DNA of 64,000 bases from a virus: the IMG/VR virus record IMGVR_UViG_3300027708_000021; one strand, written 5' to 3'. A program made the translations under genes and the position numbers. Every line of letters begins with the position of its first letter. The first letter of the stretch is position 1. Below, piece after piece: positions 8,132 to 33,907 of the stretch. A model generated the notes under the pieces. The model had not been told where the DNA came from. It did no database searches and was given only the letters and a program-made list of their open reading frames with translations.

Positions 8132-8132
8132 G

Positions 8133-14122: not shown

Positions 14123-17100
14123 ATGGCAACGATAATCTTTGGTGGCGGAGCAAGTTTTAGTGGAGGAGCAGCCACCTCAGTCCCGGCTAGCCCAACAATG
14201 CAGGCCACTGCGGGATCCGTTACCACAGTAATAGTCGCAGTCAATCAAGCTATCACTAGTTTTAGCCCGTTCGCATCAGTACAATATGGTATCAGTCCCT
14301 ATACATACAGCGTTAGTTCAGGCACATTGCCCACAGGTGTAACTATCAACAGCGCGACTGGCTTGGTGTCTGGCGTGGCCACTGTGACTCAATCGGCTAG
14401 TAATGTGACATTCAGCGTGACTGGTGCTGACGGTGTTGCAGCTTCAACTACATCTACTGTGTCATTTACTGTTAATAGTGCGATAACAGCCACGGCTACC
14501 TCAGTTCCTATCGTGGGTGTTTATCCCAATCAAGCTATAACTAGCTTTTATCCATTTAGCAGCGTATCGGGTGGTAGTCAACCATATTGGTATTTCATTA
14601 TATCTGGTACACTACCTGATAGAGTCACATTAAATCCTGGTACTGGTCTAGTATCCGGTACACCCACAGCATATTATCCCATAACTTCGGTGACTTTTGG
14701 TGTGAGAGATGCCGGCGGAGTCGTAGCCGCTACAACCAGTACAGTTAGCTTTACCAATGTTACAAACACCACTGTTAACTATATTGGTGTGGGTGGCGGT
14801 GGTGGTGGCGGAGTATATGGTGGCGGTGGTGGCGGCGGCCTAGTAACTGCTCCGCTGTCGGTGCCTACATACCCTGGAGGATGCTTTATAACTGTAACTG
14901 TAGGTACTGGTGGTGCTGGCAATCCGTCATTAACTCCCCCTAACCCTACTTGGGTAGGATCGGGTACTAGCGGTAGTAATACTGTTATTAATGGTAATAC
15001 ACTTTTGTTTGGACAGAGCTTTGGCGATATTATCTCTCTAGGTGGCGGCGGCGCTGCTACATGCGGCGGCGCCAATCCTGGAAGTCCTGGCGGGTCTGGG
15101 GGCGGCGGGGGTGGTAGCACTCCACCGGCTATTCCTGGATGTGGTGCTAAACTTGGCGGAACAAGTACACAACCTACACAAAATCCAGGAATAGTGGGTA
15201 TAATACAATATGGTAGGTCAGGTGGTGGAACTGGAAATAGTTCATTTGCTGGAGGTGGTGGTGGTGGTGCTACTACAGTAGGTGGTAACGCTACTGGCCC
15301 TACTGGTGGTCCAGGCGGTTCGGGGTACACTTGGCCATTTACAGGAAATATATACGGTGGTGGTGGTGGTGCCGGCGTATTTAATAGCGGTACACGTGGA
15401 ACAGGAGGCCCAGGTGGCGGTGGCCTTGGCGGTAACAACGGATCAACTGCTGGAGCAGCAGGTACTGCTGGACTTGGTGGTGGCGGTGGTGGTGGTGGCG
15501 GATCTTGCGGTAGTATCCGTAGTGCTGGCGGTCGTGGTGGTAACGGTGTGGCTATTTTTGCCTATGCTAGTTCAACGGTTTTATTTACAGGTGGTACACT
15601 ATCAACTCCCCCAGCAGCGCCTGGCTACCAAGTACATACATTTACTACACCTGGTACACTGACTTACTCGACAAATGCTATAATATCAACAGCTGGCTCC
15701 ACTACAACGGTATTAGCCACACAAAATATAGCTATAACCAGTTTTAATTCGTTTAGCAGCGTATCAAATGGAACTCTTCCTTATACATACTTTGTCAGCG
15801 CAGGCACATTGCCCACTGGCATAACACTGAATTCAAGCACTGGTCTAGTAAGTGGAACACCCAATGCGGTATATGCCGCAGCCAGTGTTACATTCAGTGT
15901 TAAAGACGCGACCAATGCGGTTTCTGGTACAACTACTACAGTTAGCTTTAATGTAAATGCTGAAGTAACATCAACGGCTGGTGCCACTACCACTGTTTCA
16001 GGAACTCAATTTGTAGCTATTACCAGTTTCAGTCCATTTAGCAGCGTTGCTGGTGGATATACGCCTTATACATATTATATTAGTTCAGGCACATTGCCCA
16101 CTGGTATAACCCTTAATAGTAGTACTGGTCTAGTATCCGGAACACCTACCTCGGCATATTCAACAGCCAGTGTAACATTTAGTGTTAGAGATGTAAATAG
16201 TGTCTCATCCGCAACAACTTCTACTGTTAGCTTCACTGTAGCTGCGGCAACATCAATTGCTGCTCAATATCTAGTCATAGCAGGTGGTGGTGGTGGCGGT
16301 GGCAGTTGCTTTACTGGATTTTACGGTGGTGGCGGTGGTGCAGGCGGACTATTACAAGGACCTGTTAATCTAGCTATAGGTGTAACTTACAATATCACTG
16401 TAGGAGCAGGTGGCGCTGGTGGTTGCGCCCCAATAGTTCCCACAGGATTTGGCGGCGCCAACATTGGATATGGTATCCAAGGTTCACCAAGTTTTGTTTC
16501 TGGAACACCTATCACTACAATAACTGCCATAGGCGGTGGTGGTGGTGGTGGTGGTGGTATAAATTCGCCAAGTGGTCTTGGTAGAGGCGGTCCAGGAGGA
16601 TCAGGCGGCGGTCCTGGATCAAGTGTGTCCCCAACATCTTTCACGGGCGGATGTGGCACACCCGGACAAGGATATCCTGGCGGAGGGGGTCCAGGAGCAC
16701 CAACTAACGGTAGCTCAGGCGGTGGAGCAGGCGGCCCTGGATTTCAAAAAGCAGGTGTTACGCCGCAACCTAGTGGAGCTGGATACACATGGCCATACAC
16801 AGGAAATACCTATGCTTCAGGTGGCGGATATGGATACGGACTTTCTTGTGGGCCTGTGTCACCGGGCGGTGGCGGACGAGGCGGTCCTACTTCTGGTGGA
16901 GGACTAGCGCCCTATTGTGGAGGAGCCGGAACTCCAGGCACCGGCGGTGGCGGAGGCGGTGGTGGTAGAAGTCCAGGCCCTGCTCCAACTGGTCGTGGTC
17001 TTGGAGGTCGCGGCGGACCTGGTACAGTTATCCTAGCCGTCCCAACTGTAGCATACCCAACTTTAATTGCTCCGGGAGCCGCTGTAACAACACCACCAAG

Positions 17101-18091
17101 TGCACCTGGATATACAGTATTAACTTATACTACGCCTAGTCCTACCGCACCAGCTTCGTTTACTCTTGCTACAGCAAATGTACAGTATACAGTACAATAT
17201 CTAGTCGTAGCCGGCGGTGGTGGAGGTGGTTCTACATGGTTGTCTTCTGGTTATGGAGCAGGTGGCGGAGGGGCAGGCGGATTCATAGCAGGAAATACAA
17301 TAGTAAACCAAGGAGTATCATACTCTGTTCAAGTTGGCGCAGGCGGAGCAGGAAGTACCACTATGTTTCCAACTAATGGAGTAGCAGGATCACCTGGTTC
17401 TAATTCAATCTTTTCAGCAGTTACAGCAATAGGTGGTGGTGGTGGTGGAACAAATTATACTTGTAATGTTTGCAGAGGTTTAACTGGCGGATCTGGTGGT
17501 GGTAGTACTCATGGAGGAAGTGTTGGATTGGCAACAGGAAGTCCAGGAACAGGACTAGCGGGTACACAAGGTTATCCGGGTGGATCAAGTGTAACATCTC
17601 CTCCAGCTTTTGGTGGCGGCGGAGGTGGTGGGGCTGGAGCGGCAGGCACAGCTGGAACAAGTTGTTCAGGAGGCCCTGGCGGCAATGGCTTAACTTGGGC
17701 ATATACCGGGCCAGGTATATATTATGCTGGCGGCGGTGGCGGTGGAATAAGTGGAGCATTGCCAAAATTACCTGGAACAGGAGGATTAGGCGGTGGTGGT
17801 CCTGGTGGACCTTATGTTTGTCCTCGAGGAGCTGCTGGAGTAACTGCTACCCCTAACACTGGAGGCGGTGGAGGAGCTGGATCATCTGCTAATGGCGGAA
17901 CTCCTGCTTTAGGAACCGGTGGAAGAGGAGCAAACGGAATAGTGATTTTAGCGGTTCCAACACCATATTATCCAGCTGTAAGTGCGCCGGGTGCAGCAGT
18001 ATCGACCCCGCCAGCAGCACCGGGAATGACTGTACTGACCTATACATCTCCTGGTCCTACTGTTACATCACCATTTACCTTTACAGCGTAA
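14123..18091 (+). CDS. Adhesin-like protein: N-tag, 2 Ig-like, Gly-rich, 2 Ig-like, 2 Gly-rich domains
   Basis: Ig-like 'PYTY.VSSGTLPTG.T.N..TGLVSG.P' repeats; 'Y...GGGGGGG...GGGGAGG' polyglycine domains. Confidence 0.75.
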   Translation: MATIIFGGGASFSGGAATSVPASPTMQATAGSVTTVIVAVNQAITSFSPFASVQYGISPYTYSVSSGTLPTGVTINSATGLVSGVATVTQSASNVTFSVTGADGVAASTTSTVSFTVNSAITATATSVPIVGVYPNQAITSFYPFSSVSGGSQPYWYFIISGTLPDRVTLNPGTGLVSGTPTAYYPITSVTFGVRDAGGVVAATTSTVSFTNVTNTTVNYIGVGGGGGGGVYGGGGGGGLVTAPLSVPTYPGGCFITVTVGTGGAGNPSLTPPNPTWVGSGTSGSNTVINGNTLLFGQSFGDIISLGGGGAATCGGANPGSPGGSGGGGGGSTPPAIPGCGAKLGGTSTQPTQNPGIVGIIQYGRSGGGTGNSSFAGGGGGGATTVGGNATGPTGGPGGSGYTWPFTGNIYGGGGGAGVFNSGTRGTGGPGGGGLGGNNGSTAGAAGTAGLGGGGGGGGGSCGSIRSAGGRGGNGVAIFAYASSTVLFTGGTLSTPPAAPGYQVHTFTTPGTLTYSTNAIISTAGSTTTVLATQNIAITSFNSFSSVSNGTLPYTYFVSAGTLPTGITLNSSTGLVSGTPNAVYAAASVTFSVKDATNAVSGTTTTVSFNVNAEVTSTAGATTTVSGTQFVAITSFSPFSSVAGGYTPYTYYISSGTLPTGITLNSSTGLVSGTPTSAYSTASVTFSVRDVNSVSSATTSTVSFTVAAATSIAAQYLVIAGGGGGGGSCFTGFYGGGGGAGGLLQGPVNLAIGVTYNITVGAGGAGGCAPIVPTGFGGANIGYGIQGSPSFVSGTPITTITAIGGGGGGGGGINSPSGLGRGGPGGSGGGPGSSVSPTSFTGGCGTPGQGYPGGGGPGAPTNGSSGGGAGGPGFQKAGVTPQPSGAGYTWPYTGNTYASGGGYGYGLSCGPVSPGGGGRGGPTSGGGLAPYCGGAGTPGTGGGGGGGGRSPGPAPTGRGLGGRGGPGTVILAVPTVAYPTLIAPGAAVTTPPSAPGYTVLTYTTPSPTAPASFTLATANVQYTVQYLVVAGGGGGGSTWLSSGYGAGGGGAGGFIAGNTIVNQGVSYSVQVGAGGAGSTTMFPTNGVAGSPGSNSIFSAVTAIGGGGGGTNYTCNVCRGLTGGSGGGSTHGGSVGLATGSPGTGLAGTQGYPGGSSVTSPPAFGGGGGGGAGAAGTAGTSCSGGPGGNGLTWAYTGPGIYYAGGGGGGISGALPKLPGTGGLGGGGPGGPYVCPRGAAGVTATPNTGGGGGAGSSANGGTPALGTGGRGANGIVILAVPTPYYPAVSAPGAAVSTPPAAPGMTVLTYTSPGPTVTSPFTFTA

Positions 18092-18155
18092 ATTTAAAAA
18101 TCCAAGAGCATTTGCTTTTTTTGACTAAATACGGTATAAATTCTAAAGGGTAATA

Positions 18156-19940
18156 ATGGCAGGTTTTTCTATCACTGGCGGTATCACATTTGGTCCTGGC
18201 ATCACTTATGCTACTGAACAATTTTTCACCGTAAATTACCTAGCTGTAGGCGGTGGAGGTGGTGGTGGAGCTATATCAACTGCTGGTTTTGTTGGTGGCG
18301 GTGGTGGAGCCGGTGGGGTATCAACTGGAGTATTCAATGCGCCAGTATCGGGTACAGTAACAATCAATGTGGGCACAGGCGGTGCTGGTGGCTTAGGAAA
18401 TAGTATAGCAGGCACCTCTGGCTCAAATACTAATATCTCCGGTACAGGATTTACTACTATCACTGCTGTAGGCGGTGGTGGCGGTGGTGCTGGATACGGA
18501 CCAGGTACAAGTCCCGTGGCAATAGGACTAGCAGGAGGTTCTGGAGGCGGAGCAGGTGGACAGACTCCCGCGGCTACCGTAGGTTCTGGATACCTTTCGC
18601 CCAGTCCCATACAACAAGGTTATCCAGGCTTACAATTTGCTGGCGGTGGTGCTGGCGGTAGAGGCACTAATTCAGGTAGCGCACTTGGTGGACCAGGTGG
18701 CCCAGGATACACTTGGCCTTTTACTGGAAATACATATGGTGGAGGAGGTAGTTCTGGACGCAACGGAGCACCTTGTAATAGTCCTTTGGCAGCAGCACCT
18801 GGTGGTGGTGGTGCTGGTAGTAGAGGTCTTAATGCCGCTGGTAGTGCTGGTACCGATGGTCTGGGAGGCGGTGGTGGTGGTGGAGGATTCTGCGCTACAC
18901 CACAAACTTCACTAGGCGGCAAGGGCGGTAACGGTGTAGTAGCTATTGCCTATCAAAGTGCTACTCAATTATTTGGAGGTGGTACTGTAACGCCTGGAGC
19001 AAGCAATCCAGCAGCACCTGGTTACTATGTACACACATTTACAAGTCCAGGCTCATTGACCCTCGGAGCTAACAGTCAAATTGTTGCTCAATATCTCGTA
19101 GTAGCTGGCGGCGGTGGCGGTGGCTCTAATTGGGGCGGTGGTGGTGGTGGCGGTGGCCTTCTTACAGGATCTGTTATCTTAGGTCCAGGCACTCCAATTA
19201 CAATTACAGTCGGTGCTGGCGGCGCTAATACCAATCCTGGTGGCTCGGGCGGAAACAGTATAATTTATAACAGCGCCACTAGTTCTAATGTAGCAGTGGC
19301 TTTTGGTGGAGGTGGAGGCGGTTTTGCTGGCGGCAGCCCAGGCGGAGGCAGTGGTCCTGGTATAGCGGGCGGATCAGGCGGTGGCGGTGGTTGGGGGACC
19401 GGTGGTGGCGCAGGATCAGGTTATCCTGGACCTACACAACAAGGTTATCCGGGTGGGTCGGGTTCGGGTGGTAGTTATGCCACAGCAGGCGGCGGAGGCG
19501 GTGCCGGAGCGGCAGGAAACCCAGCTCCTGGTTCTGCGGGCGGCCCTGGCGGTAACGGATATACTTGGCCGTATACTGGAAACACCTACGCAGGCGGCGG
19601 CGGTGGTGGTGCTGGCGGTTCTGGAACAAATACTATTGCTCCAGGTGGTACAGGCGGTGGCGGATATGGTAACTGGGCACCGGGAGGATTAAGTGCAAAC
19701 GGTCAAGCTGGAACACCCGGTCTAGGTGGTGGTGGCGGTGGTGGGTCAACTAATGGTGGTGTAGGCGGTGCTGGCGGATCTGGCGTAGTTATCATAGCTG
19801 TTCCAACCCCAAATTATCCAGGTTTTGCTCCGGGTGCTAGTAATGTATCAAACACTTATCCTGGCGCTCCAGGGTTGACGGTAATAACTTATACTACGCC
19901 AAGTCCAGGTGCTCCGGCGACATTTACTTATACTGCATAA
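18156..19940 (+). CDS. Adhesin-like protein: N-tag and 2 Gly-rich domains
   Basis: Two paralogous polyglycine domains; ends TFTYTA. Confidence 0.75.
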   Translation: MAGFSITGGITFGPGITYATEQFFTVNYLAVGGGGGGGAISTAGFVGGGGGAGGVSTGVFNAPVSGTVTINVGTGGAGGLGNSIAGTSGSNTNISGTGFTTITAVGGGGGGAGYGPGTSPVAIGLAGGSGGGAGGQTPAATVGSGYLSPSPIQQGYPGLQFAGGGAGGRGTNSGSALGGPGGPGYTWPFTGNTYGGGGSSGRNGAPCNSPLAAAPGGGGAGSRGLNAAGSAGTDGLGGGGGGGGFCATPQTSLGGKGGNGVVAIAYQSATQLFGGGTVTPGASNPAAPGYYVHTFTSPGSLTLGANSQIVAQYLVVAGGGGGGSNWGGGGGGGGLLTGSVILGPGTPITITVGAGGANTNPGGSGGNSIIYNSATSSNVAVAFGGGGGGFAGGSPGGGSGPGIAGGSGGGGGWGTGGGAGSGYPGPTQQGYPGGSGSGGSYATAGGGGGAGAAGNPAPGSAGGPGGNGYTWPYTGNTYAGGGGGGAGGSGTNTIAPGGTGGGGYGNWAPGGLSANGQAGTPGLGGGGGGGSTNGGVGGAGGSGVVIIAVPTPNYPGFAPGASNVSNTYPGAPGLTVITYTTPSPGAPATFTYTA

Positions 19941-19971
19941 AACTAATAAATACTCTATAGGAAAATAAATT

Positions 19972-22900
19972 ATGGCTGTAACTATAAATTCAGGTTGGAC
20001 AGTAGGCAATGGTTGGTATGCAGCCGGCTTAAACAACTATCAATTAAATGCTTGGGGTAATAATAGTTTTGGACAACTGGCTCAAAGCAACAATACCCAC
20101 TATTCTAGCCCAGTACAAGTGGGTACTAGTATTGGTTGGACCAATGTGTCAGACGGATATAATTATTCCGCGGCACTTCAAAGCCCTGGCGTATTATTCA
20201 CATGGGGAAATAACAGTTTTGGCCAATTGGGTCTTAATACTTTGACTAACTACTCTAGTCCAGTACAAGTATCAGCTCCAAATGTGTCTTTAATAAATCC
20301 ATGGAGAACTCTCGCGACAATAGGGGGTCAAAATGGAAATTTTACATTTGAAAGTGCCATACAGAGTAATGGTACACTATGGGCCTGGGGTGATGATCAA
20401 CTTGGCCAATTAGGTCTTAATACTTTAACCGGTTTTTCTAGCCCACAACAAATTGGCACATTGAGTACATGGTCTAAAGTAGCTTGCGGATATGGCTGGA
20501 TTTTGGCGATTCAAAGCCCAGGCACATTATATTCTTGGGGTTATAACGCTGCTGGCCAGTTAGGTAATAATAATACAACAAGTAGATCTAGTCCTGTACA
20601 AGTAGGTGTATTAAACTATTGGACTCAAGTAGCAGGAGGAAAAGGGCATTCTGTAGCTTTACAAAGCAACGGAACAATATGGGCTTGGGGTGCTAACCAG
20701 GCTGGTCAATTGGCTCAAAACAATACTCAAAGTTATTCTAGTCCAGTACAAGTATTTAACATAGGATTGTCTGCATGGCAGCGGGTTGGTACAACATTAT
20801 CAGCAAGTCAATTAGCTATTCAAACTAATGGAACATTATGGGCTTGGGGCAATAATAGTTATGGCCAATTAGGGTTTAGTGATCAAACAAATCGTTCTAG
20901 TCCAGTACAGATAGGTGCTCTGAGTATATGGACTCAAGTTGCTGTAGGTGGCCTTGGTATTTCAAGTGCCCATGTTATGGCGATTCAAAGTCCAGGCACA
21001 CTATGGTCTTGGGGATTGAATAGTTTTGGACAGTTAGGTAATAACAGTACAACATTTATTCCTGTTTATAGTCCGGTACAAGTTGGCACATTAAGTACTT
21101 GGACTCAAGTTGCCTGCGGATACAATTATACCGCAGCCATACAAAGTCCTGGCACACTATGGACTTGGGGACTTAATTCTTCTGGCCAATTAGGACTTAA
21201 TACTCCCACTACAAATAATGCTTCTAGTCCTGTGCAAATAGGCGCTGTTAATTATTGGACACAAGTTGCAGCTGGAGCTGGACACATAGTGGCTATACAA
21301 AGCCCAGGCACACTATGGTCCTGGGGTAATAATACTCAAGGGCAATTGGGACTTAGCGATACCACTAACAGATCAAGCCCTGTACAAATAGGCTCATCCA
21401 GCTTATGGACGCAAGTTGCTTGCGGACCTTATTTCACTACAGCACTGCAGACTCCTGGCACGTTATGGGCATGGGGTAATAACAGTTTTGGGCAACTGGG
21501 CACAAGTAATCAAGTAAATATTTCCAGTCCAGTTCAAGTAGGCGCACTGAGTTTATGGACTCAAATCTCTTGCGGATACACGTTTACCACAGCACTGCAA
21601 ACTCCTGGTTCATTATGGGTCTGGGGCAATAACAGTTTTGGACAGTTAGGACTTAGTGATGTAACACATCGTTCTAGTCCAGTACAAGTAGGTTCATTAA
21701 ACACATGGACTCAGACTGTTGGCGGATTCAATGATACAGTGGCTATAGCAAGTCCAGGAACATTATACGCTTGGGGTAGTAACTCTTATGGTCAGTTAGG
21801 TGCTTATACAGCTATTGCTAATGGCAGAAGTAGCCCAGCACAAATATCTTCGCCTGCAACAGCTAGTTGGAGAGCTGTGGTAAGTGGAGCTAATTTTGTA
21901 TCGGCTATTCAAACTAATGGCACATTATGGGCTTGGGGCGACAATCAATTTGGTCAGTTGGGTCTAAGCGATCTAACGAATAGATTAAGTCCAAATCAAA
22001 TAGGTTCGTTAAGTACATGGACACAAGTAGCTGATGGATATTATTATTGTCTAGCGATACAAAGTAATGGCACATTATGGGCATGGGGCAACAATAGTTT
22101 TGGTCAGTTGGGTCTAAGCGATCAAACACATCGTTCCAGTCCAGTCCAAGTACTTGGTGGTTCTTGGGCACAAGTTTCTTGTGGGTTTAGTCATAGTTTA
22201 GCATTACAAAGTACAGGCACATTATGGGCTTGGGGGCAGAATAATTTTGGTCAATTAGGCAATAGTAATAGTACGACGGATCAATATAGTCCAATACAAA
22301 TAGGGATATTAAGTGGGTGGCAACAAGTAAGTGCTGGTTTGCGAGGATCATACGCTATTCAAAGTAACGGAACATTTTATTCATGGGGATTAAACAGCCA
22401 AGGTCAATTGGGTCTTAATACTACAGTAGCTACATCATATCCAAATATTGTCCTCAATCCTGCTCAAGGAGCTTGGAATCAGATATCCTGCGGATATCGT
22501 GCTACCGCGGCATTGATATCTCCTGGTACATTATGGGTATGGGGCAATAATAGTTTTGGCGTATTGGGCAATAATAGTCTAACTAATTCTTCAAGTCCTA
22601 TACAAGTAGGTTCGTTGAGTATATGGACACAAGTATCCAGCGGATTCTTTGCCATGTCCGGTATACAATCACCTGGTACATTATGGTCCTGGGGCAATAA
22701 TAGTTTTGGTCAATTGGGACAATTTGATACAGCAAATCGTTCTAGTCCAACACAAATAGGCGCATTAAGCACTTGGACACAAGTTAGCATGGGTCAATCA
22801 TATTGTCTAGCTATACAGACACCTGGTTCATTATGGTCATGGGGATTGAATACCTTTGGACAACTAGGTCTTAATACTACGACTAATATTTCAAGTCCTG

Positions 22901-23298
22901 TGCAGGTAGGAGCTCTTACCACTTGGACACTAGTAACAGCTGGTGGTGGCGGTTCTGCTGCAGCCATAGCAAGTCCTGGCACATTATATGTATGGGGTAA
23001 CAACAGTTTTGGTCAATTGGGTCTTAATACTACGACATTAAGTGCTATTTCTAGTCCAGTACAATTAGGCACTGGTAGCAACTGGTCTCAAGTATACATG
23101 CCGGGTGCGACGTCTAACGGTCAATTTATGGTAGCACTACAAAGCAATGGCACATTATGGTCATGGGGATTGAATACTTTTGGTCAGCTAGGTCTTAATA
23201 CCACAACTAACTATTCTAGTCCTATACAGATAGGAGCATTAACTACTTGGACTACTGCTAGTGTAGGTCAAAATTATGTTACAGCAATACGCTATTAA
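19972..23298 (+). CDS. RCC1/BLIP-II repeat protein, 21 repeats (three 7-bladed propellers predicted)
   Basis: ~50-aa repeat '[20 protein letters not shown]...SSPVQVG..WTQV.CG'; 21 counted by hand. Confidence 0.9.
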
Positions 23299-23322
23299 TA
23301 TGTCATCTATGGAAAAAGTATC

Positions 23323-24147: not shown

Positions 24148-24149
24148 AC

Positions 24150-24174
24150 AAAAAGCACCCTAGGGTGCTTTTTT
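24150..24174. terminator. Bidirectional intrinsic terminator (AAAAAGCACCCTAGGGTGCTTTTT)
   Basis: Perfect palindrome between convergent genes. Confidence 0.85.
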
Positions 24175-24196
24175 ATTGACTACAAATACTACAGTA

Positions 24197-25030
24197 TTAT
24201 TTGAAGCGTGGACCCAATACCCAAGCTACTAAACTATAACGCTTGCCTTTGGTAACTGGAGTAACTTCGTGTAAGGTATATCCTGGGAAGAAAATACCTG
24301 TGCCCTGTTGACGATGTGGACGCTCTGGGTCATCACGAGTATGCAACAACAAATCGCCACCTTCATAATCACCGCTGTCTGATAGTTGTATACTAACACT
24401 TAACTTTCTTGTACCTGTACCCTGATACATCATGTCAATATGCTTGCCATAGAAGCCTGATTCTTTGCCATCGTAACTGGTAAATTGTAAACTCTGGATT
24501 TCTGACAATTCATAGTTAAAGAATTGGTCATTGATATTTTTGATAGCATCACGCATACGTTGGAAGATCCAATGATTTTCTTGGATATCTGAACGGATCC
24601 AAGCCACTGGACTTTTGCGTACTTTGGCTACTTTTTCAAGATCACTTTCGCTTTGATGTAAATCACCTACTGTGCCATATGTTAATGGACTGGCTAACCT
24701 ACCACCAGTACCTACATCGATAATCTTCTGGCATTCTTCGGGAGTAAAGATATTATGAGCATAAGCCCAATTTTCATTTGTAGTGCTGTCTAACCACCAG
24801 TTAAACGAACTAGCATACTCTGCTACTTTAGGAATGAGATCTTTGTTAAGTTTAGATTCACCAACTACTTGACTATTCTCAGTCAAGATCTTAGTGATAT
24901 TGGGATTCTTTTTTCTAGCTACTGTGGCAGCAGATTCTTTTACTACAGCAGGTTTGGTTACCTTAGATGCTTTAGTAGTAGTTTTAGTATGTTTAGCTGG
25001 CTTTACAGCTTGTGCAGTTTTTTTTATCAT
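24197..25030 (-). CDS. 2OG-Fe(II) oxygenase, prolyl-4-hydroxylase/PKHD-like, with Lys-rich N-terminal extension
   Basis: HxD 'YGKHID', 'RKLSVSIQLS', 'YEGGDL', 'LHEVTPVTKGKRYSLVAW'. Confidence 0.88.
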   Translation of the reverse strand: MIKKTAQAVKPAKHTKTTTKASKVTKPAVVKESAATVARKKNPNITKILTENSQVVGESKLNKDLIPKVAEYASSFNWWLDSTTNENWAYAHNIFTPEECQKIIDVGTGGRLASPLTYGTVGDLHQSESDLEKVAKVRKSPVAWIRSDIQENHWIFQRMRDAIKNINDQFFNYELSEIQSLQFTSYDGKESGFYGKHIDMMYQGTGTRKLSVSIQLSDSGDYEGGDLLLHTRDDPERPHRQQGTGIFFPGYTLHEVTPVTKGKRYSLVAWVLGPRFK

Positions 25031-25587
25031 TTTTTAATTCCTAACATAGGCCTTTTGTCAAATTTATAATCTTTGTAAATTCCGTTGGCATCAACATAAT
25101 GCAAAAATAACTGTATCTGTTGATTGCCTTCGTATGGCTCACGCCAGTGTTCCACATCACACCCTTTATATATCGCTATATCGCCGGGGTTGAGTAAAAT
25201 TTTCTTACCTTCCATAAAGATAGGCCAAGGTTTTGGATCATTGTCAATACATAATGTCGCGCTGTATTGACAGCTGGGTCTGTCTTTGTGTGCTGCTAGG
25301 GTAGAACCCTTCCAATAGATCCTACCATAGGTATAAGTTGGATACAATTCCAATCCTGTCTGCTCTTGCATCAATGGAAGCAATGTAACCGCTAGACTAT
25401 CACAGATAGTATGTCCATAAAATGGATAGCCCACAGGACTTTGCTCATCACCAAATTCAGTCTTGTTTTCTGGATCAATCCCTTTTAAGTGATAATCCAC
25501 AGCTTTAGTCAGCAATAGTGTATTTTTTAGCAAGTCCAGGGTATCTGGACTGATAACTTGTCGTGCTACTCGATATGGTTGTTTCAT
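25027..25587 (-). CDS. 2OG-Fe(II) oxygenase
   Basis: HxD 'HKDRPSCQYSATL', distal His 'EHWRE', 'QLFLHY'; ATGA overlap with the next oxygenase. Confidence 0.8.
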   Translation of the reverse strand: MKQPYRVARQVISPDTLDLLKNTLLLTKAVDYHLKGIDPENKTEFGDEQSPVGYPFYGHTICDSLAVTLLPLMQEQTGLELYPTYTYGRIYWKGSTLAAHKDRPSCQYSATLCIDNDPKPWPIFMEGKKILLNPGDIAIYKGCDVEHWREPYEGNQQIQLFLHYVDANGIYKDYKFDKRPMLGIKK

Positions 25588-25721
25588 AGGTCAGTTAAAA
25601 TGTGTAATATACTTAGTGATTATACAATCTTGCTGGAAAAAAGATGAATATTTTGGTAATATCCAGTCAAGCTGTATACTGGTAAATATATAATAATATA
25701 TTTTTAATCAAGGAAAATATA

Positions 25722-26990
25722 ATGTCGGTTATAATAAATGGAGATTGGATAATTAGTGCTACTACTACTATAGACATAGCACGAATATCGGCTACAGCAG
25801 GAGCCACTACCACAGTATCGGGTACTCAAAATACAGCTATCACTAGTTTTAGTCCATTTAGTAGTGTTACTGGTGGATATAGTCCTTATACATATTATGT
25901 CAGCGCAGGTACACTACCCACTGGCATAACACTCAATCCAAGTACTGGTCTAGTAAGTGGAACACCTACTGCAGCATATTCAACAGCCAGCGTTACATTT
26001 AGTGTACAAGATGCCAATCAACAGGTAGCTGTTACAACTAGTACCGTTAGCTTTACTATAATAGTAGCAACTAATCCAGCAAATTATATAGTAGTAGGTG
26101 GCGGCGGCGGTGGCGGTGGTTCTTACATGTTTACTCCTTATGTTTTTATGCAACCTGGAATAACAAGCCAGCTAGCTGGTGGTGGAGGCGGCGGCGGCCA
26201 AGTTCTAACCGGAACTGCGGCATTGCTTCCAGGCACTCCATATAGTATTGTAGTAGGTGGTGGTGGTGGTGGTGGTTGTGGTGCTTATGGAAGTGTAGGG
26301 CCAACATGTAATTTTGCCGGACAAGGCACACCCAGTTCATTTTACTGTCGCGTCGCTGTTGGCGGTTGTGGAGGAAGTGCTGGTAGCGGAACAGCACCCA
26401 AGGGCCCGTGTAAATCAAATTTAGGAGGCAAAGGTGGCAACGGAGGTCGCGGTAGTCTCTCCGGAGCAGCAAGTTCAATACCTGGTGGTGCTTATCAATA
26501 TCGTGGTGGCAGTGGCGGTGGTGGTTCGGCTACTCCTGGGGTTGGAACAGCCGCTAGCAATCAAGGCGGTGCCGGCGGTGCTGGATTACTATGGCCTCAA
26601 ACTGGTCCAGGAGTATATTATGGTAACGGAGCCAGCGGTGGTAGTGCTTATTGTATAGCACCTGGGGTTCCTCCTAGTGGCACTGGTCGTGGCGGCTATG
26701 GCAGAACACCTTTTTATCCCCCTGCATATGGTGTCGCTTATGGAGCTCCAACTGCTGGTGGCACCAATATCGGACAGGGTGGCGGTGGCAATGGTGGAAC
26801 CCAAGGTCCTCCTTCGGGTCCTGCTTGTAGTTTTGGAATGGCTGGCGGATCTGGAGTAGTTATATTAGCTATCCCAACTCCCACTTATACTGGAGTATAT
26901 TCAGGTGGCCCTGTGGTTGTATCAAATCCTCCCGCGGCTCCAGGACAAACAGTATTGAAATTCACAGGATCTGGAACTTACACAGCCTAA
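25722..26990 (+). CDS. Adhesin-like protein: N-tag, 1 Ig-like, 1 Gly-rich domain
   Basis: Ig-like repeat close to the 4th Ig of 14123; ends 'LKFTGSGTYTA'. Confidence 0.75.
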   Translation: MSVIINGDWIISATTTIDIARISATAGATTTVSGTQNTAITSFSPFSSVTGGYSPYTYYVSAGTLPTGITLNPSTGLVSGTPTAAYSTASVTFSVQDANQQVAVTTSTVSFTIIVATNPANYIVVGGGGGGGGSYMFTPYVFMQPGITSQLAGGGGGGGQVLTGTAALLPGTPYSIVVGGGGGGGCGAYGSVGPTCNFAGQGTPSSFYCRVAVGGCGGSAGSGTAPKGPCKSNLGGKGGNGGRGSLSGAASSIPGGAYQYRGGSGGGGSATPGVGTAASNQGGAGGAGLLWPQTGPGVYYGNGASGGSAYCIAPGVPPSGTGRGGYGRTPFYPPAYGVAYGAPTAGGTNIGQGGGGNGGTQGPPSGPACSFGMAGGSGVVILAIPTPTYTGVYSGGPVVVSNPPAAPGQTVLKFTGSGTYTA

Positions 26991-27038
26991 ATATTACCAG
27001 CATAAATATACTATTATTAGATTGTTAAGGAAATAATA

Positions 27039-27416
27039 ATGGGTCATTTTGCTAAAATAGAAAACAATATCGTAACACAGGTTATTGTAGCCGAACAGGA
27101 TTTCATCGACGCTGGACATGTGGGCGATCCTAATAGTTGGGTACAAACTAGCTATAACACACGACGCGGAGTACATTATAATCCAGAAACAGGCCAACCA
27201 GATGGCGGTATAGCACTACGCGGTAACTACGCCAGAATTGGTCATATATATGATGCAGCGTTGGATGCTTTTTATCCGCCCAGTCCATTCCCAAGTTGGA
27301 CTATGAACACCACAACATACACTTGGCAAGCACCTGTACCACAGCCAACCGACGAAGGCAAAATCTTTGGTTGGAATGAAACAACTAAATCTTGGGATGA
27401 TCTAACCCCAGTTTAG
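27039..27416 (+). CDS. Small phage protein, possibly an adhesin/fibre assembly partner
   Basis: 'MGHFAKIENNIVTQVIVA...WVQTSYN...LRGNYA.IG..YD...DAF..P.PFPSW...WQAP.P.P...W.E....W'; own TAAATA and SD. Confidence 0.6.
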   Translation: MGHFAKIENNIVTQVIVAEQDFIDAGHVGDPNSWVQTSYNTRRGVHYNPETGQPDGGIALRGNYARIGHIYDAALDAFYPPSPFPSWTMNTTTYTWQAPVPQPTDEGKIFGWNETTKSWDDLTPV

Positions 27417-27433
27417 AAATAGGATAAAATAAT

Positions 27434-30400
27434 ATGCCATTATCAATGACAGGAAGTTGGAATATATCGGGCAATGTTTCCATGGATTCTGTCGCCACTC
27501 TTACGGCTGTAGCAAGCGCAACTACTTCTGTAGCTCTACTGCAAAATCAGGCTATGACTAGTTTTAGTCCTCTTTCCAGTGCGTCAGGTGGCTACGCTCC
27601 ACTTAGCTATGTGGTCCAATCAGGTATACTACCTCCTGGTATAACATTAAATTCTACTACAGGTCTAGTATCTGGAACTCCTACTACGATACAAAATTCT
27701 AGCCCTGTGGTTTTTGCCGTACAAGACAAATATGGTAATCAATCTGCCGTTACATCTACAATAAATTTTGCCGTAGCATCATTACCAGTACTAGCTACTG
27801 TGGGAACGAATACCCCAGTAGTAGGTGTAATTAATAATACTATTACTAGTTTTTATCCACTGATCAACGCATCGAATGGATTTGCTCCATTGACATATTC
27901 CATATCATCTGGAACATTACCTGTTGGAATAACACTGGATGCTGTTACTGGTCTAGTATCTGGTACTCCTACTGTGATACAAGGTGCCGCCAATGTTACA
28001 TTTATTGTCAAAGATTCACAAAACAATCAAGCTGCTACTACAGTTACAATTAGCTTTACAGTAAACAACTTCTCAGCTACGCCTGGAACTACTACTCTAG
28101 TTACGCAACTTCAAAATACTGCTATTACTAGCTTTAACACATTTGTTAGTATTAATGGTGGATACACTCCATATACATATTACGTACAATCGGGTACACT
28201 ACCTACAGGAATAACACTTGATCCAAGTACAGGTATAGTATCTGGCACTCCTACTGTGTTACAAACAGCATCCAATGTAGTATTTGCTGTAAAAGATGCT
28301 CAAAATAACATAGCAACTGGAACTCTTACCGTTACTTTTGAAGTTACATTATACATAGCAAGATATCTAGTAGTAGGTGGCGGTGGTGGTGGCGCATCTG
28401 GTCCAAGTGGCTGCCCTACTTATGGTGCAGGTGGAGGTGGAGCCGGTGGTTTATTACAAGGTAACGTTTGTTTAGTAAGTGGAGGAATTTATAATATTCA
28501 AGTCGGTGGCGCTGCTCCTTTTACTGGCCCACAAGGCAATCCGTTAATTGTACAAGGTTATTCTAGCAATATTACCGGTCCGGGTATTTCAACTATTACT
28601 ACAGTAGGTGGCGGCAGTGGTACTCCAGGCGTAGGTGGTGTTGGCCAAGTAGGAGGCTCTGGTGGTGGTGGTGGCTCTCCTGGCGGAATAGGAGGTCTTG
28701 CTACTGGAAGTCCCGCTATAGGCGTTGCAGGAACGCAAGGATATCCAGGATCTCCAGGTCCTAGCTTCAGTGGTGGTAGCGGTGGTGGTGCTGGTGGTGC
28801 TGGTGGAATTGGTTGCAATCCTGGTCCTGGATATACTTGGCCTTATAACGGAATAGTTTATGCTCAAGGTGGCCGCGGCGCTAGCTTTAATGTGATCAGC
28901 ACCCCGAAAACTCCTGGTGTAGCAGGCACAGGTCAAGGTGGTAATGCTAGCGGTAATGTTTTTGGGACCGGCGGCTCTGGTGGTTCTGGTACTGTTATAT
29001 TAGCATTTCCAAATGCGTTATATCCAGCTATAAATTCACCAACTGCTACAGTAACCACACCTCCAGCAGCCCAGGATCAACAGTATTGACCTTCGCAACT
29101 CCTAGTCCGGGTATACCAACAAGTCATATGATAGCAGTTAATTATCCCGGGACATTTGCGACACAATATCTCGTAGTAGGTGGCGGCGGCGGCGCTGGTC
29201 GAGGCGGATATGGTGGCGGCGGTGGCGCTGGCGGCCTATTACAAGGAAATATCTTGTTGACAGCTAACACAACTTATACTATCCAGGTTGGTGCTGGTGG
29301 TGCTGGATTAGCCGCTGGACCTGCAAATTCTGGTAATCCTGGGCTGAGTAGTAATATCACCAGCTCAAGCCCAAATTTTGGTAATATCACTACCCTTGGT
29401 GGCGGAGGAGGCGGAGCTCAAAATCCGTCACCAGTATTCAGCAATGTTTCTGCTTCTCTTCCTGGTGGTTCTGGCGGTGGCGCTGGTATAGGTCAATTAG
29501 GTCAAGGTACTGCATCTAGTCAACCCGGCTCTCCTGGAACTTTGGGACAAGGATATAGTGGTGGTGGTTCTAGCGGCCTTCCTGCTCCAGCTACTAGTTT
29601 CAGCGGTGGTGGTGGTGGAGGAGCTGGTGGTGGTGGAGCATCATCTTGTGGAGTAGGCGGCCCAGGAGTAATATTCCCAGCAACAGGACTTTACTATGCA
29701 GGCGGTGGCGGTGGCTATTCCTATCCGGGTATTCTTAATCTTGGTGGACAAGGCGGTGGCGGAAGAGGAGGTAACTCGCAAACTCCGGGGTCTTCTTCTG
29801 GTACTCCGGGTCTTGGCGGTGGTGGCGGCGGTAGTCAAGGCTGTACACCTAGTCCGTCGGGTGGATCAGGTACAGTTATCATAGCTGTACCAACACTGGT
29901 ATATCCTTCAGTAAGTGCTCCAGGCGCCACAGTATCTACCCCACCCGCAGCACCAGGTCGAACAGTACTAACCTATACCACGCCAACACCAACAATACCG
30001 GCTTCTTATAGCTTGAGTATTGCAAATTTGTCATTTTATAATATTCAATATCTAGCTGTAGGCGGTGGTGGTGGTGGTGGATGGCGTGGTGGTGGTGGTG
30101 GCGGTGGTATAGCCACTGGAAATACAACAGTTCGATGTGGATTATCTTTGTCTATCACAGTAGGTGGAGGTGGTTCTGGCGTAGCAAACTATAACAACAT
30201 TTGCCGACCTGCTAATGGAGCTGCAGGTGTAGGCACCAATGGTAATAATTCAAGTATTTCTGGCCCCGCAATTTCTACTACCATAACTGCTCAGGGTGGT
30301 GGTTTTGGTGGAGCCACTGGTAGTTGTGGCACCAATGTTGGTCCCGGTGGATGCGGTGGATCAGGTGGTGGTGCTGGTACTGCTATTGGTACTTCTACAC

Positions 30401-30897
30401 AGCCCAGTCAAAATCCTGGAATCGCCAATCTTACAAATTACGGTAATCCAGGTGGCCTAGGAGAAGGTGGCGGTGGCGCAACAGGAGTTGGAACAACCGC
30501 CGGCGGCGCCGGATATACTTGGCCGTTTACAGGAAATATCTATGCGGGCGGCGGTGGTAAAGGTGGATACGCTGGTAGCGGTGCTGGTGCCAGTGGTCCA
30601 GGTGGTGGCGGTGCTGGAAATCCTGGTGGTGGTGGAACTGCGCCTGCTGGTACACCAGGTCTAGGTGGTGGTGGTGGCGGAGCAGGCACTAATTTTTGTA
30701 GCAGACCTCGCCAACAATCATATGGAGGCCCTGGTGGATCTGGTACAGTTATATTAGCTGTGCCAAACATAGCTTATCCAACTATAGTTGCGCCTGGAGC
30801 AGCAGTATCAACACCACCTGCTGCGCCTGGATATACTGTATTAACTTATACAGCGCCAACACCTGGTACTCCAGCAACATTTACATTTACCACTTAA
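27434..30897 (+). pseudogene. Adhesin-like gene (N-tag, 3 Ig-like, 3 Gly-rich) split by a 1-nt frameshift near 29070 into ORFs 27434..29089 and 29086..30897
   Basis: ...PPAA-QDQQY* becomes ...PPAA-PGSTVLTFATPSPG with one added base, matching the paralog consensus PPAAPGxTVLTY. Confidence 0.8.
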
Positions 30898-30939
30898 TAT
30901 AACAATTATTCCAAGCTAATATATGCCATAAATATCTTT

Positions 30940-32727
30940 ATGGCAGTCACTATAAACGGATCAGTAGCAATAACAGGCACCACTAGTATGGATCCTGCTA
31001 TATTGCCGGTAGTAGCCGTAGCAGGTACTACTACTACGGTATCAGCTAGAGTAGGTGTCGCACTTAGTTTTAGTCCATTTGCTAGCCTTACCAACGGATA
31101 TCCTCCATATATAGTTTCTGTACAGTCAGGTACATTGCCCGCAGGATTGACAATAAACAGCGTGGGAGTAGTATCTGGTACTCCCACTACGGTACAAGCG
31201 GCAGCTAATGTGGTATTTGCTGTCACTGATTATTTTGGTAATCCAGCTGCTACCACTGTTACAGTGAATTTTACAGTATTGAACATGTCAGCTGTAGCTG
31301 GAGCTACTACGACTGTATCAACAGCGGTTAATCAATCTATTACCAGCTTTAGTCCATTTAGTAGCGTAACAGGCGGAGTTAGTCCGCTGGTATATTATGT
31401 CAGTTCTGGTACCTTACCTCCTGGTATCACTATTAACAGTAGTACCGGTTTAGTATCTGGCACTCCTACTACCGTACAGTCAGCATCCAATGTAATATTT
31501 GCTGTTAGAGATTCAGCAGGTAATCAAGCTACGACTACAGTTACAGTTGGTTTTACAGTAACTAGTATTGTAGCTGTAGCTGGAGCTACTACTACGGTAT
31601 TTGTAGTAATAAATACTGCTATCACTAATTTTAGTCCGTTTTCTAGTGTGTCATATGGATACACTCCATATACATATTTTGTCAGTTCAGGTACATTGCC
31701 CACAGGTATTACACTTAACAGTAGCACTGGAGTAGTATCTGGTACCCCTACTGCGTTATACACAGCAGCTAATGTAGTATTTGCAGTTAAGGATGCACAA
31801 AATAATCAAGCTGTGACCACAGTCACAGTCAGCTTTGAAGTAGTAGCCCCAGGATATACTCTTAACTATCTAATAGTAGCCGGTGGTGGCGGCGGCGGAT
31901 ATAGCTCAGTTGGAAGTTATGGTGGTGGCGGTGGCGGTGGTGGTGGATTTTTATCAGGGAACACTTATGTATCCTTTGGAAATCCATACAGTATTCAAGT
32001 TGGAGCAGGTGGACTTGGATCTACAGGTACGGGTGCAGGTGCGCCAGGAAATAATTCAATTTTTTCTAGCTTTACCTCAATCGGTGGCGGTGGTGGTGGC
32101 AGTACCCTTTGCGCTCCTGTCATGCCAGGTCAACCCGGCGGTTCAGGTGGCGGAGGCATGGGTTATCAGCCTATGGGCATAGCCATTGGTAGTCCTGGTT
32201 ATGGTGTAGCTGGCACTCAAGGATATCCTGGCGGCGCAGGAATTACATTGCCAGGTATTCCTTCTTTTGCTGGCGGTAGTGGCGGCGGCGCTGGGGGTAC
32301 AGGAAATTTTAGCACTTGTACTGTTGCTGGCCCTGGCGGCCTTGGTCGTCTTTGGCCATTTAATAATACCACGTATGCCGGCGGTGGTGGTGCTGGACTA
32401 GGAGGTCCTGGTAGTGCTAGTGGTCCCAGCCCAGGCGGTGGCGCCAGTGGAGGTCCGTTTAATCCACCGCTTGGCAGCGTTGGATTTAATGCAGGAACCA
32501 ATACTGGAGGTGGTGGTGGAGGAGGCTCTCACGGAACCAGCATTGGTAGAGGTGGTGGCAACGGAGCAGCCGGAACAGTTGCCTTAGCAATACCAACGCC
32601 ATTTTATCCAGGAGTAGTTGCGCCAGGCGCTGCTGTATCAACACCAGCAAATGCTCCAGGTTATACTGTGTTGACATATACAACCCCAGGACCTACTGTA
32701 ACATCACCATTTACATTTACTGCCTAA
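30940..32727 (+). CDS. Adhesin-like protein: N-tag, 3 Ig-like, 1 Gly-rich domain
   Basis: Same modules; C-terminus PGPTVTSPFTFTA is identical to that of 14123. Confidence 0.75.
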   Translation: MAVTINGSVAITGTTSMDPAILPVVAVAGTTTTVSARVGVALSFSPFASLTNGYPPYIVSVQSGTLPAGLTINSVGVVSGTPTTVQAAANVVFAVTDYFGNPAATTVTVNFTVLNMSAVAGATTTVSTAVNQSITSFSPFSSVTGGVSPLVYYVSSGTLPPGITINSSTGLVSGTPTTVQSASNVIFAVRDSAGNQATTTVTVGFTVTSIVAVAGATTTVFVVINTAITNFSPFSSVSYGYTPYTYFVSSGTLPTGITLNSSTGVVSGTPTALYTAANVVFAVKDAQNNQAVTTVTVSFEVVAPGYTLNYLIVAGGGGGGYSSVGSYGGGGGGGGGFLSGNTYVSFGNPYSIQVGAGGLGSTGTGAGAPGNNSIFSSFTSIGGGGGGSTLCAPVMPGQPGGSGGGGMGYQPMGIAIGSPGYGVAGTQGYPGGAGITLPGIPSFAGGSGGGAGGTGNFSTCTVAGPGGLGRLWPFNNTTYAGGGGAGLGGPGSASGPSPGGGASGGPFNPPLGSVGFNAGTNTGGGGGGGSHGTSIGRGGGNGAAGTVALAIPTPFYPGVVAPGAAVSTPANAPGYTVLTYTTPGPTVTSPFTFTA

Positions 32728-32730
32728 TAA

Positions 32731-32754
32731 AAAAAGCACCCTAGGGTGCTTTTT
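32731..32754. terminator. Bidirectional terminator identical to the one at 24150
   Basis: AAAAAGCACCCTAGGGTGCTTTTT between convergent genes. Confidence 0.85.
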
Positions 32755-32755
32755 G

Positions 32756-33907
32756 TTATATCTTAAATAATTTTAGATTATTTTCAATCTGTGCTAAGGG
32801 TTCGTCCCAAGCACCTATACTAGGTTGGCGGAATATACGACAACTACTGTACCAAGGACTGTCATTGCGTTTCAGCAACCAGCGCCAGTCCTGGCCAAAC
32901 TGATTCAATGGCAACCAGAATGGGCGACCCAGAGCTCCAGCTAAGTGACCTACGGCAGTATCTACAGCTATGACCACATCGAGATTCATGATCAATCCTG
33001 CTGTGTCGTTCCAGTCTTTAATCTCACCGTTATATTGTGTTACACCTTGTGCTACTAACTTATCCAGTTCTTCTTGAGTACAGTCTGTTTGTAAATTGAC
33101 CCATTCATATTGGGGATTACGCTGGATCAAGTCAAATATCTTGTCAAAAGGCACAGCTTTGTGCTGATTGATCCAACTGTCTCTGCGCCCGGACCAGCAT
33201 ACACCCACACGCAATTTCATTTTTCTGCCCAGTCGCTCCTGCCATGCCCGTGTGCTCATTGAACTAGGAGCTAGGTACTGTAATTTGTGTGGCAAATTAG
33301 CATAATTTATATTTAAAAATCCAGGCAAACTCATCATGGGGCTCCAATAATCAAAGTGTGGCAGGATATCATCTGAACCTAGTACTGTAACAGGCGATGC
33401 AAATGAATTTACCAATAATGCTTTTAGATTGTTCTCTACACATATGACCACATTAGCCCCTAGCTTGATCAATTGTTCAGCAAAGCGGCAAAATTGTATG
33501 TTATCGCCATGGCCTTGTTCGCCTGTGATTATGATAGTCTTGTCTTTTAAATCCTGACCTTCCCATCGCGGCTGACTCAACTTAGGAAGGGTACCATCTA
33601 AGTGTTCAAACTGCCAGCGTTTTTCATACTGCTTCCATCCACGATCTAGATCTCCAGCTAACAAATATGCCACAGCAAGATTAAATTGGGCCACACTATC
33701 TTTATCATTGATAGCTATGGCATTTAATAAAAATCCAATGGCTCTGTCTGGATAACCCATCTCTCTAACTACATTTCCATAGTTGTTATAAGCTGATCCC
33801 ATGTCAGGATTTTGTATAAATGCTTGGGCATAACAAGCTAGGGCTTTTTCTGGTTCGGAAATTGAGCGAAAATGATTACCATGTGCTAGTAGTTCGTCGT
33901 GTGTCAT
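32756..33907 (-). CDS. TPR + GT-B (GT9-like) glycosyltransferase
   Basis: N-terminal TPRs ('AYNNYGNV', 'AQFNLAVAYL'), 'GW..YE.RW', 'EQGHGDNIQFCRF', 'VGVCWSG', 'DTAGLI.NLDVVIAVDTAVGHLAGALG', 'DWRW...SPWY'. Confidence 0.88.
   Translation of the reverse strand: MTHDELLAHGNHFRSISEPEKALACYAQAFIQNPDMGSAYNNYGNVVREMGYPDRAIGFLLNAIAINDKDSVAQFNLAVAYLLAGDLDRGWKQYEKRWQFEHLDGTLPKLSQPRWEGQDLKDKTIIITGEQGHGDNIQFCRFAEQLIKLGANVVICVENNLKALLVNSFASPVTVLGSDDILPHFDYWSPMMSLPGFLNINYANLPHKLQYLAPSSMSTRAWQERLGRKMKLRVGVCWSGRRDSWINQHKAVPFDKIFDLIQRNPQYEWVNLQTDCTQEELDKLVAQGVTQYNGEIKDWNDTAGLIMNLDVVIAVDTAVGHLAGALGRPFWLPLNQFGQDWRWLLKRNDSPWYSSCRIFRQPSIGAWDEPLAQIENNLKLFKI

Follow-up and report, generated by a model that had tools for sequence, protein, structure and literature searches.

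An oxygenase pair and a TPR glycosyltransferase in the fibre region of an uncultured aquatic jumbo phage: two candidate accessory systems

We analysed 64,000 nucleotides (nt) of DNA from the IMG/VR record IMGVR_UViG_3300027708_000021 (this whole stretch is hereafter referred to as the window), which cover head and fibre genes of an uncultured tailed phage. An array of genes for glycine-rich, adhesin-like proteins (positions 14123-32727) encloses two adjacent minus-strand genes for 2-oxoglutarate (2OG)/Fe(II) oxygenases, 2OG_b and 2OG_a, and is bordered by a third minus-strand gene, encoding a glycosyltransferase with tetratricopeptide repeats (TPR-GT; Table 1). From sequence comparisons and structural models, we tentatively favour the view that these genes would represent two independent accessory systems within the structural region, an oxygenase pair that may tailor a fibre-tip protein and a TPR-GT that may act on a virion protein. 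A broader proposal, in which the pair would be dedicated to the tailoring of polyglycine fibre-tip adhesins across jumbo phages, cyano- and pelagiphages and marine podophages, and the GT9-type TPR-GT would separately have the capsid or some other conserved virion protein of an abundant lineage of aquatic jumbo phages as its acceptor, is possible but doubtful. An earlier reading of this DNA from its letters alone (hereafter, the sequence-only reading) had singled out two oxygenases and the TPR-GT as the only convincing minus-strand genes and had placed them inside or beside the array. The inventory of open reading frames (ORFs) agrees on both points, all the remaining minus-strand ORFs of at least 100 aa being contained in longer plus-strand ORFs. 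That reading was right about the minus-strand pair but overlooked the plus-strand gene of another such enzyme, the third 2OG oxygenase of the window (2OG_c).

The pair consists of translationally coupled 2OG/Fe(II) dioxygenases, both of which are prolyl-4-hydroxylase (P4H)-like, and the start of 2OG_a overlaps the stop of 2OG_b by 4 nt. A P4H-like nature had already been suggested for one of the oxygenases, and it holds for 2OG_a by family and for 2OG_b by fold. 2OG_a matched PF13640 with 53.4 bits (E-value 5.4e-14; gathering cut-off 27), with further matches to the PKHD-type hydroxylases PiuC/Sbal_3634 (about 1e-6) and to NF003974 (2.8e-19), and its residues H197, D199, H254 and R264, corresponding to the iron triad and the 2OG-binding RxS motif, are invariant in 23 sequences. 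2OG_b yielded no Pfam, NCBIfam or PDB sequence match and was recognized only by phrog_2954, which carries the label 'ferrochelatase'. In 24 sequences, H100, D102, R103, C106, H147, R149, H163 and Y164 of 2OG_b are invariant, with an HxD...H triad, and the AlphaFold2 (AF2) model (predicted local distance difference test, pLDDT, 92.9) has a double-stranded beta-helix (DSBH) fold. The best Foldseek match to this model was the PBCV-1 enzyme vCPH (5c5t; template modelling score, TM, 0.61), followed by bacterial P4H and PHD2 (TM 0.55-0.62), and P4H/PHD enzymes headed the 347 PDB matches obtained at E <= 0.001. A complex of 2OG_a (residues 85-277) with 2OG_b, predicted from alignments, scored 0.02, which speaks neither for nor against such a complex.

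The viral enzyme vCPH provides the closest comparison for the pair. It shares the DSBH fold and the HxD...H triad with 2OG_b and the Pfam family PF13640 with 2OG_a, and in both cases the enzymes are virus-encoded and lie beside Pro-containing repetitive structural proteins. However, sequence identity to vCPH and the P4H/PHD enzymes is only 10-16%, the pair comprises two coupled and sometimes fused enzymes, and its conserved partners are Gly-rich and not made of (PAPK)n or collagen repeats. No Gly-X-Y collagen periodicity was seen by eye in the C-terminal stretches and in two full-length proteins of the array. Other activities were considered and rejected. A TET/JBP or AlkB-type nucleic-acid oxygenase was dropped as a lead because both the family assignment and the best fold matches point to P4H/PHD; chains of the AlkB family appear further down the 2OG_b fold list. 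Lysyl hydroxylation of the Mimivirus L230 type was rejected because the array proteins are almost devoid of Lys, and homology to L230 had an E-value of only 0.7. The 'ferrochelatase' label of the GenBank homologues of 2OG_b, widespread among cyanophage genes and found in cyano- and pelagiphage records such as those of Syn9 gp54, HTVC008M gp068 and S-TIM4 ORF_45, is wrong, the fold being DSBH and P4H-like with no match to a ferrochelatase family, and is corrected here.

Residues 1 to about 70 of 2OG_a form a basic tail rich in Lys, Ala and Thr, which is present only in close kin. This tail (24821-25030) is also Pro-rich and has an ES-AT-AR-K motif conserved in this clade only; conceivable binding partners of the tail are nucleic acid and the very acidic protein of 311 aa encoded at 4141-5076.

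The genomic neighbours of the pair speak for a fibre-linked role. Genes of the a and b types were adjacent in dozens of viral contigs, in the order b to a in close kin and a to b in T4-like cyano- and pelagiphages and podophage-like contigs, and they were fused into a single ORF in contigs L096 (438 aa) and L101 (401 aa). Genes with a Gly_rich_2 domain were called with an iterated hidden Markov model built from the window's own domains in the viral contigs, and with the PF21722 model of Pfam in complete genomes. The distance from such a gene to the pair was 8-620 bp in L081, L082, L085, L098-100, L104-107, L110, L125, L126 and L128-130. S-TIM4, Pelagibacter phage Mosig and HTVC008M each had a single PF21722 gene, at about 0.5-1.7 kb from the pair (ORF_41 in S-TIM4, gp065 in HTVC008M), and Syn9 had two, at 30.6-32.2 kb, just before its dioxygenase array. 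In other podophage-like contigs, the pair directly followed tail-fibre-like genes. Furthermore, the pair was often accompanied by p125, a small gene, beside Gly_rich_2 genes. The recurrence of the pair beside Gly_rich_2 genes in several lineages, including the fusions, therefore favours a fibre-linked role, and we tentatively propose that it is a fibre-tip tailoring cassette, the main rival being an accessory or metabolic role. A tblastn search with the Gly_rich_2 protein of S-TIM4 returned, after low-complexity filtering, 15 records aligned over the N-terminal part only. A genome search with PF13640 missed the known 2OG_a of genome G009 and was not used for conclusions on 2OG_a.

Several of these loci have additional features. 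The fusions (L096, 7534-8847; L101, 9872-11074) have a 2OG_b-type N-terminal half and a 2OG_a-type C-terminal half, with fibre-like paralogues on either side, and the L096 locus also contains a p125 homologue. In the podophage-like loci L104 (6851-14900) and L110 (3554-9300), an oxygenase island occupies the middle of the structural module, behind a Gly_rich_2 gene and a p125 homologue; in L104, this island also includes carbamoyltransferase-like and flavin-halogenase-like ORFs, recognized by N-terminal motifs only. Sequence resembling a tRNA gene was noticed just upstream of the oxygenase genes in L083 (about 9050-9180) and L131 (about 1140-1260) (…GCTCAGTTGGTTAGAGC…GGTTCGAGTCC…).

The array comprises seven proteins with a PF21722 Gly_rich_2 match (30-132 bits in all seven; gathering cut-off 24.3), often with additional He_PIG immunoglobulin-like (Ig) domains, and one RCC1 protein. 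The eight proteins contain 13-36% Gly, 3.7-8.6% Pro and at most 3.1% D+E+K+R (K+R 0.4-2.4%); both Gly and Pro are lowest in the RCC1 protein, the range across the seven Gly_rich_2 proteins being 19-36% Gly and 6.6-8.6% Pro. The Pro-rich motifs (PTPxYPG, APGAAV-TPPAAPG and SPSPG) are part of a C-terminal tag of about 40-47 residues common to the array proteins (PTPxYPG..APGAAV-TPPAAPG-YTVLTYT-P-PG..TFTYTA). The description of these proteins as almost uncharged and bearing Pro motifs is accurate, but their designation as Pro/Ser/Thr-rich plays down the fact that they are primarily Gly-rich. The expectation that Pro content would follow the presence of the enzymes was not upheld, since from one lineage to another the Pro content of the C-terminal tags did not consistently follow the presence of the pair; incomplete contigs confound the comparison of tags within the clade.

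Glycine-rich fibre tips followed by a small gene are known from other phages. In cyanophage Pam3, the chaperone gene gp25 lies downstream of the glycine-rich fibre tip gene gp24, and the Pam3 gp24 and S16 gp38 tips resemble the array in having a glycine-rich receptor-binding domain with GGGGxGG motifs and a small gene downstream (PMC9608196). Unlike these tips, the proteins of this kind in the window number seven and come with Ig domains and a C-terminal tag rich in Pro. No match to the solved chains was seen at the level of sequence, the tie between p125 and gp25 being one of position only, and a PDB sequence search with Gly274 or p125 found nothing meaningful. A Roseobacter podophage and Methylophilales phage Melnitz both have p125 behind Gly_rich_2 genes, and p125 adjoins the pair in several loci; its homologues include CRP-143 gp40, Melnitz _172 and S-TIM4 ORF_46, from podo-, myo- and jumbo phages. 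Judging from position only, p125 probably encodes a fibre-tip chaperone or partner.

Promoter motifs separate the pair from the structural genes and from the TPR-GT gene. In relatives, the promoter of the pair is of the textbook sigma-70 type (TTGACA-N17-TATAAT). By contrast, the motif TAAATA (compare the T4 late motif TATAAATA) is located 25-39 nt 5' of eleven plus-strand structural genes and 11-13 nt 5' of the portal gene, Gly595 and the TPR-GT gene. Fifteen of the 34 plus-strand copies of TAAATA fall within the 3% of the sequence lying just upstream of gene starts. Both convergent junctions, between Gly274 and 2OG_a and between Gly595 and the TPR-GT gene, have an identical 24-nt hairpin (AAAAAGCACCCTAGGGTGCTTTTT) that is found nowhere else in the window and is probably a bidirectional terminator. 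The identical hairpins at both junctions therefore suggest that the minus-strand genes are discrete transcription units.

A number of observations weigh against a fibre-linked role for the pair. 2OG_b occurs alone among replication or ribonucleotide reductase genes in P-SSM7, L086 and L089, and L083 has the pair and an extra 2OG_a-type gene among replication genes. With the Pfam model, no PF21722 gene was found in the P-SSM7 genome; conversely, CRP-143 and Melnitz have Gly_rich_2 and p125 genes with no oxygenase gene annotated nearby. The partner proteins of the Kyanoviridae lack the Pro-rich tag and stop immediately behind the final strand of the domain, so any target conserved in these distant partners is not that tag. 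In addition, the independent juxtapositions number only about three to five, because the synteny in the Kyanoviridae is inherited. Finally, the pair has a sigma-70-type promoter without the late-type TAAATA, as does 2OG_c, which would fit host-directed or metabolic genes inserted in a hot spot of the fibre region. A literature search on the timing of expression of cyanophage oxygenase clusters found nothing usable.

As an alternative, the oxygenases might be auxiliary or host-takeover enzymes, or tailor small molecules, the proximity of fibre genes reflecting only an insertion hot spot for accessory genes. We consider this explanation to be rather unlikely, but it has several points in its favour. 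The replication-module homologues of 2OG_b (P-SSM7, L083, L086 and L089) and the sigma-70-type promoters are consistent with it, as is 2OG_c, which lies between the portal gene and the acidic scaffold-like gene. Relatives lack 2OG_c at this site, where they have only about 355 nt, and this gene therefore looks like a moron, given its sigma-70-type promoter and the empty site. In cyanophages and podophage-like contigs, moreover, the pair is part of larger arrays that also contain genes resembling halogenases and carbamoyltransferases, and Iyer et al. 2010, who described the Syn9 array, took such arrays for clusters for secondary-metabolite synthesis (PMC2938197). The Syn9-type arrays resemble the window in that their 2OG_b is homologous (Syn9 gp54), and they cluster several unrelated 2OG dioxygenases 3' of the tail-fibre region (PMC2938197). 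Unlike them, the window has a two-gene core on the opposite strand, within a jumbo-phage array of fibre-tip genes. For bacterial operons, the same authors suggested that tail-collar and Gly-rich proteins are first hydroxylated and then sulfated (PMC2938197). Against the auxiliary-gene explanation stand the same Gly_rich_2 or fibre adjacency across widely differing phage backbones and with either gene order, and the protein prolyl hydroxylases as the closest folds. An Ofd1-like 2OG oxygenase was also found in the virion proteome of a cyanomyovirus, although its authors allow for carry-over (PMC12801897).

The TPR-GT combines TPR family matches at residues 7-100, forming six helices in the AF2 model (pLDDT 88.9), with a GT-B domain. 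Foldseek searches with the whole model retrieved both the SPY/OGT architecture and the GT9 structures 1psw and 3tov. The match to OGT/SPY reflects the overall architecture (root mean square deviation 14-17 A), whereas GT9 fits the catalytic domain better: in structural alignments of this domain (VIA-align), the Z scores were 18.4 for 3tov, 17.6 for 1psw (WaaF), 16.4 for 4rap (TibC) and 16.3 for 2h1f. The GxGD135 and D316-TAV-x-H321 motifs are invariant in the TPR-GT homologues and correspond to the GT9 catalytic and donor-binding motifs of WaaC. TibC/BAHT and the lipopolysaccharide (LPS) heptosyltransferases thus share with TPR-GT the GT-B fold (Z 16-18 over about 245 residues), the GD motif after strand 1 and DTAVxH in the C-domain. 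Unlike them, TPR-GT has a TPR arm, and its score against PF01075 (19.6 bits, below the cut-off of 22) covers a stretch of 28 residues only.

The likeness to protein O-glycosyltransferases such as FlmG that the sequence-only reading had pointed out stands as regards architecture, and the promoter-like motif of the gene is that of the structural genes. FlmG is the flagellin O-glycosyltransferase of Caulobacter, with TPR and GT domains (PMC7591256). FlmG, OGT and SPY share with TPR-GT an N-terminal TPR arm, which binds the protein substrate in the known enzymes, and a C-terminal GT-B domain. However, TPR-GT has only three TPRs and 383 aa (596 aa in FlmG), and its best superposition is with GT9 rather than GT41.

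Nearly all members of this phage clade have the TPR-GT gene. We identified 189 relatives in IMG/VR, and in 31 long related loci the gene adjoins the major capsid protein (MCP) gene on the opposite strand (27 of 31) and is divergent from a homologue of p317 (30 of 31). A Gly-rich gene lies beside it in 5 of the 31, a whole array being found there only in L001. The motif TAAATA followed by N4-9 and ATG precedes TPR-GT in 59 of 62 distinct loci, versus 1.3% of random windows. Homologues are also present in the structural modules of two further phage groups: in a spring-water podovirus, two genes after the capsid gene, the neighbours being a galT-like gene and one for a methyltransferase, and among the fibre genes of Synechococcus phage BUCT-ZZ01. 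Virion glycosylation by phage glycosyltransferases is described for mycobacteriophages (Freeman et al. 2023, as cited in PMC12619734); according to that citation, the phage glycosyltransferase lies in or near the structural module, as here, and capsid or tail proteins are likely acceptors. The mycobacteriophage enzymes cited there belong to other glycosyltransferase families.

The architecture of TPR-GT, its late-type motif and its place in structural modules suggest a protein acceptor, which the TPR arm would bind. The GT9 fold, best known from LPS heptosyltransferases, and the PF01075 score below the cut-off both weigh against it. As the best structural matches are LPS heptosyltransferases, TPR-GT might act on a non-protein acceptor, either LPS or envelope sugars of the host, as GT9 heptosyltransferases do, or phage DNA, the DNA glucosyltransferases of T4 also having a GT-B fold. 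We regard this as improbable. A TPR arm is typical of protein-directed GT-B enzymes, TibC, a protein heptosyltransferase, is within 2 Z units of the top match, the late-type motif is common to TPR-GT and the structural genes, and the gene is found in the structural modules of three phage groups.

According to the sequence-only reading, the phage would hydroxylate and then glycosylate its own array proteins. This pathway is unsupported because TPR-GT and the pair are separate systems, inherited independently, and their co-occurrence was not found outside this window and L002. Five complete Kyanoviridae genomes encode a 2OG_b homologue, next to a 2OG_a-type gene in four cases, and none of the five had the glycosyltransferase. 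Conversely, an 89%-complete, 317-kb relative has the glycosyltransferase, and neither a PF21722 gene nor 2OG_b was found there, in searches in which positive controls were detected. It therefore seems very unlikely that the oxygenases form hydroxyproline (Hyp) on Pro-rich motifs of the array for TPR-GT to glycosylate, even though the genes of the three enzymes are all inside a single array or border it, both oxygenases are P4H-like, Pro-rich tags are kept in the array and in close kin with the pair, and in L002 a stretch of 5 kb includes the glycosyltransferase, the pair and a Gly-rich gene. The promoters differ in type (sigma-70-type for the pair, TAAATA for TPR-GT), TPR-GT is conserved even in the absence of any Gly-rich gene (G005), the distant Gly_rich_2 partners of the pair lack the tag, and the Hyp glycosyltransferases (Gnt1 on Skp1 and the plant enzymes) are not known to be of GT9 type.

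Gene identities, folds, catalytic motifs, synteny and promoter motifs are observed here, and from them we infer substrates, chemistry and timing for the two proposed systems as follows. The pair would be produced from its host-type promoter, before or alongside the late proteins, and would most likely modify a fibre-tip protein oxidatively, probably by hydroxylation; from the fold alone, Pro is the best guess for the target residue. TPR-GT would be expressed late and would most likely use its short TPR arm for the substrate and its GT9-fold catalytic domain to O-glycosylate a conserved virion protein of the clade. Besides the capsid protein and p317, a further structural protein rich in Ser/Thr is a candidate acceptor, the Gly-rich array being at most an additional one.

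Few unexplained accessory genes are as common in marine phages as those for 2OG-Fe(II) oxygenases, and the neighbouring glycine-rich fibre tip would be a defined candidate substrate that makes oxygenase function testable. If the proposed role of the pair is correct, part of this long-unexplained wealth of oxygenases modifies the phages' own receptor-binding proteins, whose chemical tailoring would constitute a new layer of host-range determination. Likewise, a late, clade-wide TPR-GT beside the capsid gene would extend virion glycosylation from mycobacteriophages to aquatic jumbo phages.

The source is an uncultured aquatic jumbo myophage. Its portal, prohead protease and MCP genes had strong PHROG matches, and the MCP shares 62-67% identity with its counterparts in jumbo myophages, for example Vibrio phage 2.275.O, PA5oct and Serratia BF. 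A megablast search of a phage collection with positions 23300-34000 gave no match, and thus no near-identical DNA there, and IMG/VR contains many relatives, on contigs of up to 317 kb, with capsid proteins 89-98% identical.

Table 1. Positions of the genes and control elements considered in the 64-kb window.
Feature	Position (nt)	Strand	Description
Portal	905-2740		Strong PHROG match
2OG_c	2811-3524	+	Third 2OG oxygenase; TIGR02466/phrog_81; own TTGACA-N17-TATTAT
Acidic protein	4141-5076		Very acidic, 311 aa, scaffold-like; 30% D+E
Prohead protease	5086-5748		Strong PHROG match
MCP	6872-8068		Strong PHROG match
Gly1322	14123-18091	+	Four He_PIG Ig domains, three Gly_rich_2 stretches, Pro-rich C-terminal tag
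Gly594	18156-19940	+	Two Gly_rich_2 domains, 36% Gly, Pro-rich tag
RCC1 protein	19972-23298	+	1108 aa; 21 repeats; nearly uncharged
Gly274	23323-24147	+	One Gly_rich_2 domain and Pro-rich tag; convergent with 2OG_a
Hairpin	24150-24173		24 nt, palindromic A-tract/stem/T-tract; between Gly274 and 2OG_a
2OG_a	24197-25030	-	277 aa; PF13640 (2OG-FeII_Oxy_3), P4H/PKHD type
2OG_b	25027-25587	-	186 aa; first gene of the pair; phrog_2954 (8e-47); P4H-like fold
Promoter region of the pair	25588-25721	-	TATAAT 36 nt 5' of ATG; no TAAATA
Gly422	25722-26990	+	He_PIG and Gly_rich_2; divergent from 2OG_b
p125	27039-27416	+	phrog_7759; small gene trailing Gly_rich_2 genes in many phage families
Gly551, Gly603, Gly595	27434-32727	+	Proteins with He_PIG and/or Gly_rich_2
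Hairpin	32731-32754		Identical 24-nt copy; between Gly595 and TPR-GT
TPR-GT	32756-33907	-	383 aa; three TPRs (1-100) and GT-B domain of GT9 type (about 117-383)
TPR-GT/p317 control region	33908-34058		Divergent; TAAATA 6 nt before the TPR-GT ATG; TATAAATA at 33958 facing p317
p317	34059-35012		Divergent from TPR-GT

Three further observations concern the surroundings of these genes. The 616 nt 3' of 2OG_c (3525-4140) contain no ORF of 100 aa. A homing endonuclease gene (8130-8930, plus strand) lies directly 3' of the MCP gene, a position at which relatives have a different endonuclease or none. For p317, a PDB sequence search gave nothing meaningful and there was no match in the phage database; the stretch of about 90 nt from TATAAATA/TAAATA to its start is kept throughout the clade (L001-L074; …GCATAAAA…CTACGC…GGTTCTA…) and looks like a 5' leader of p317.

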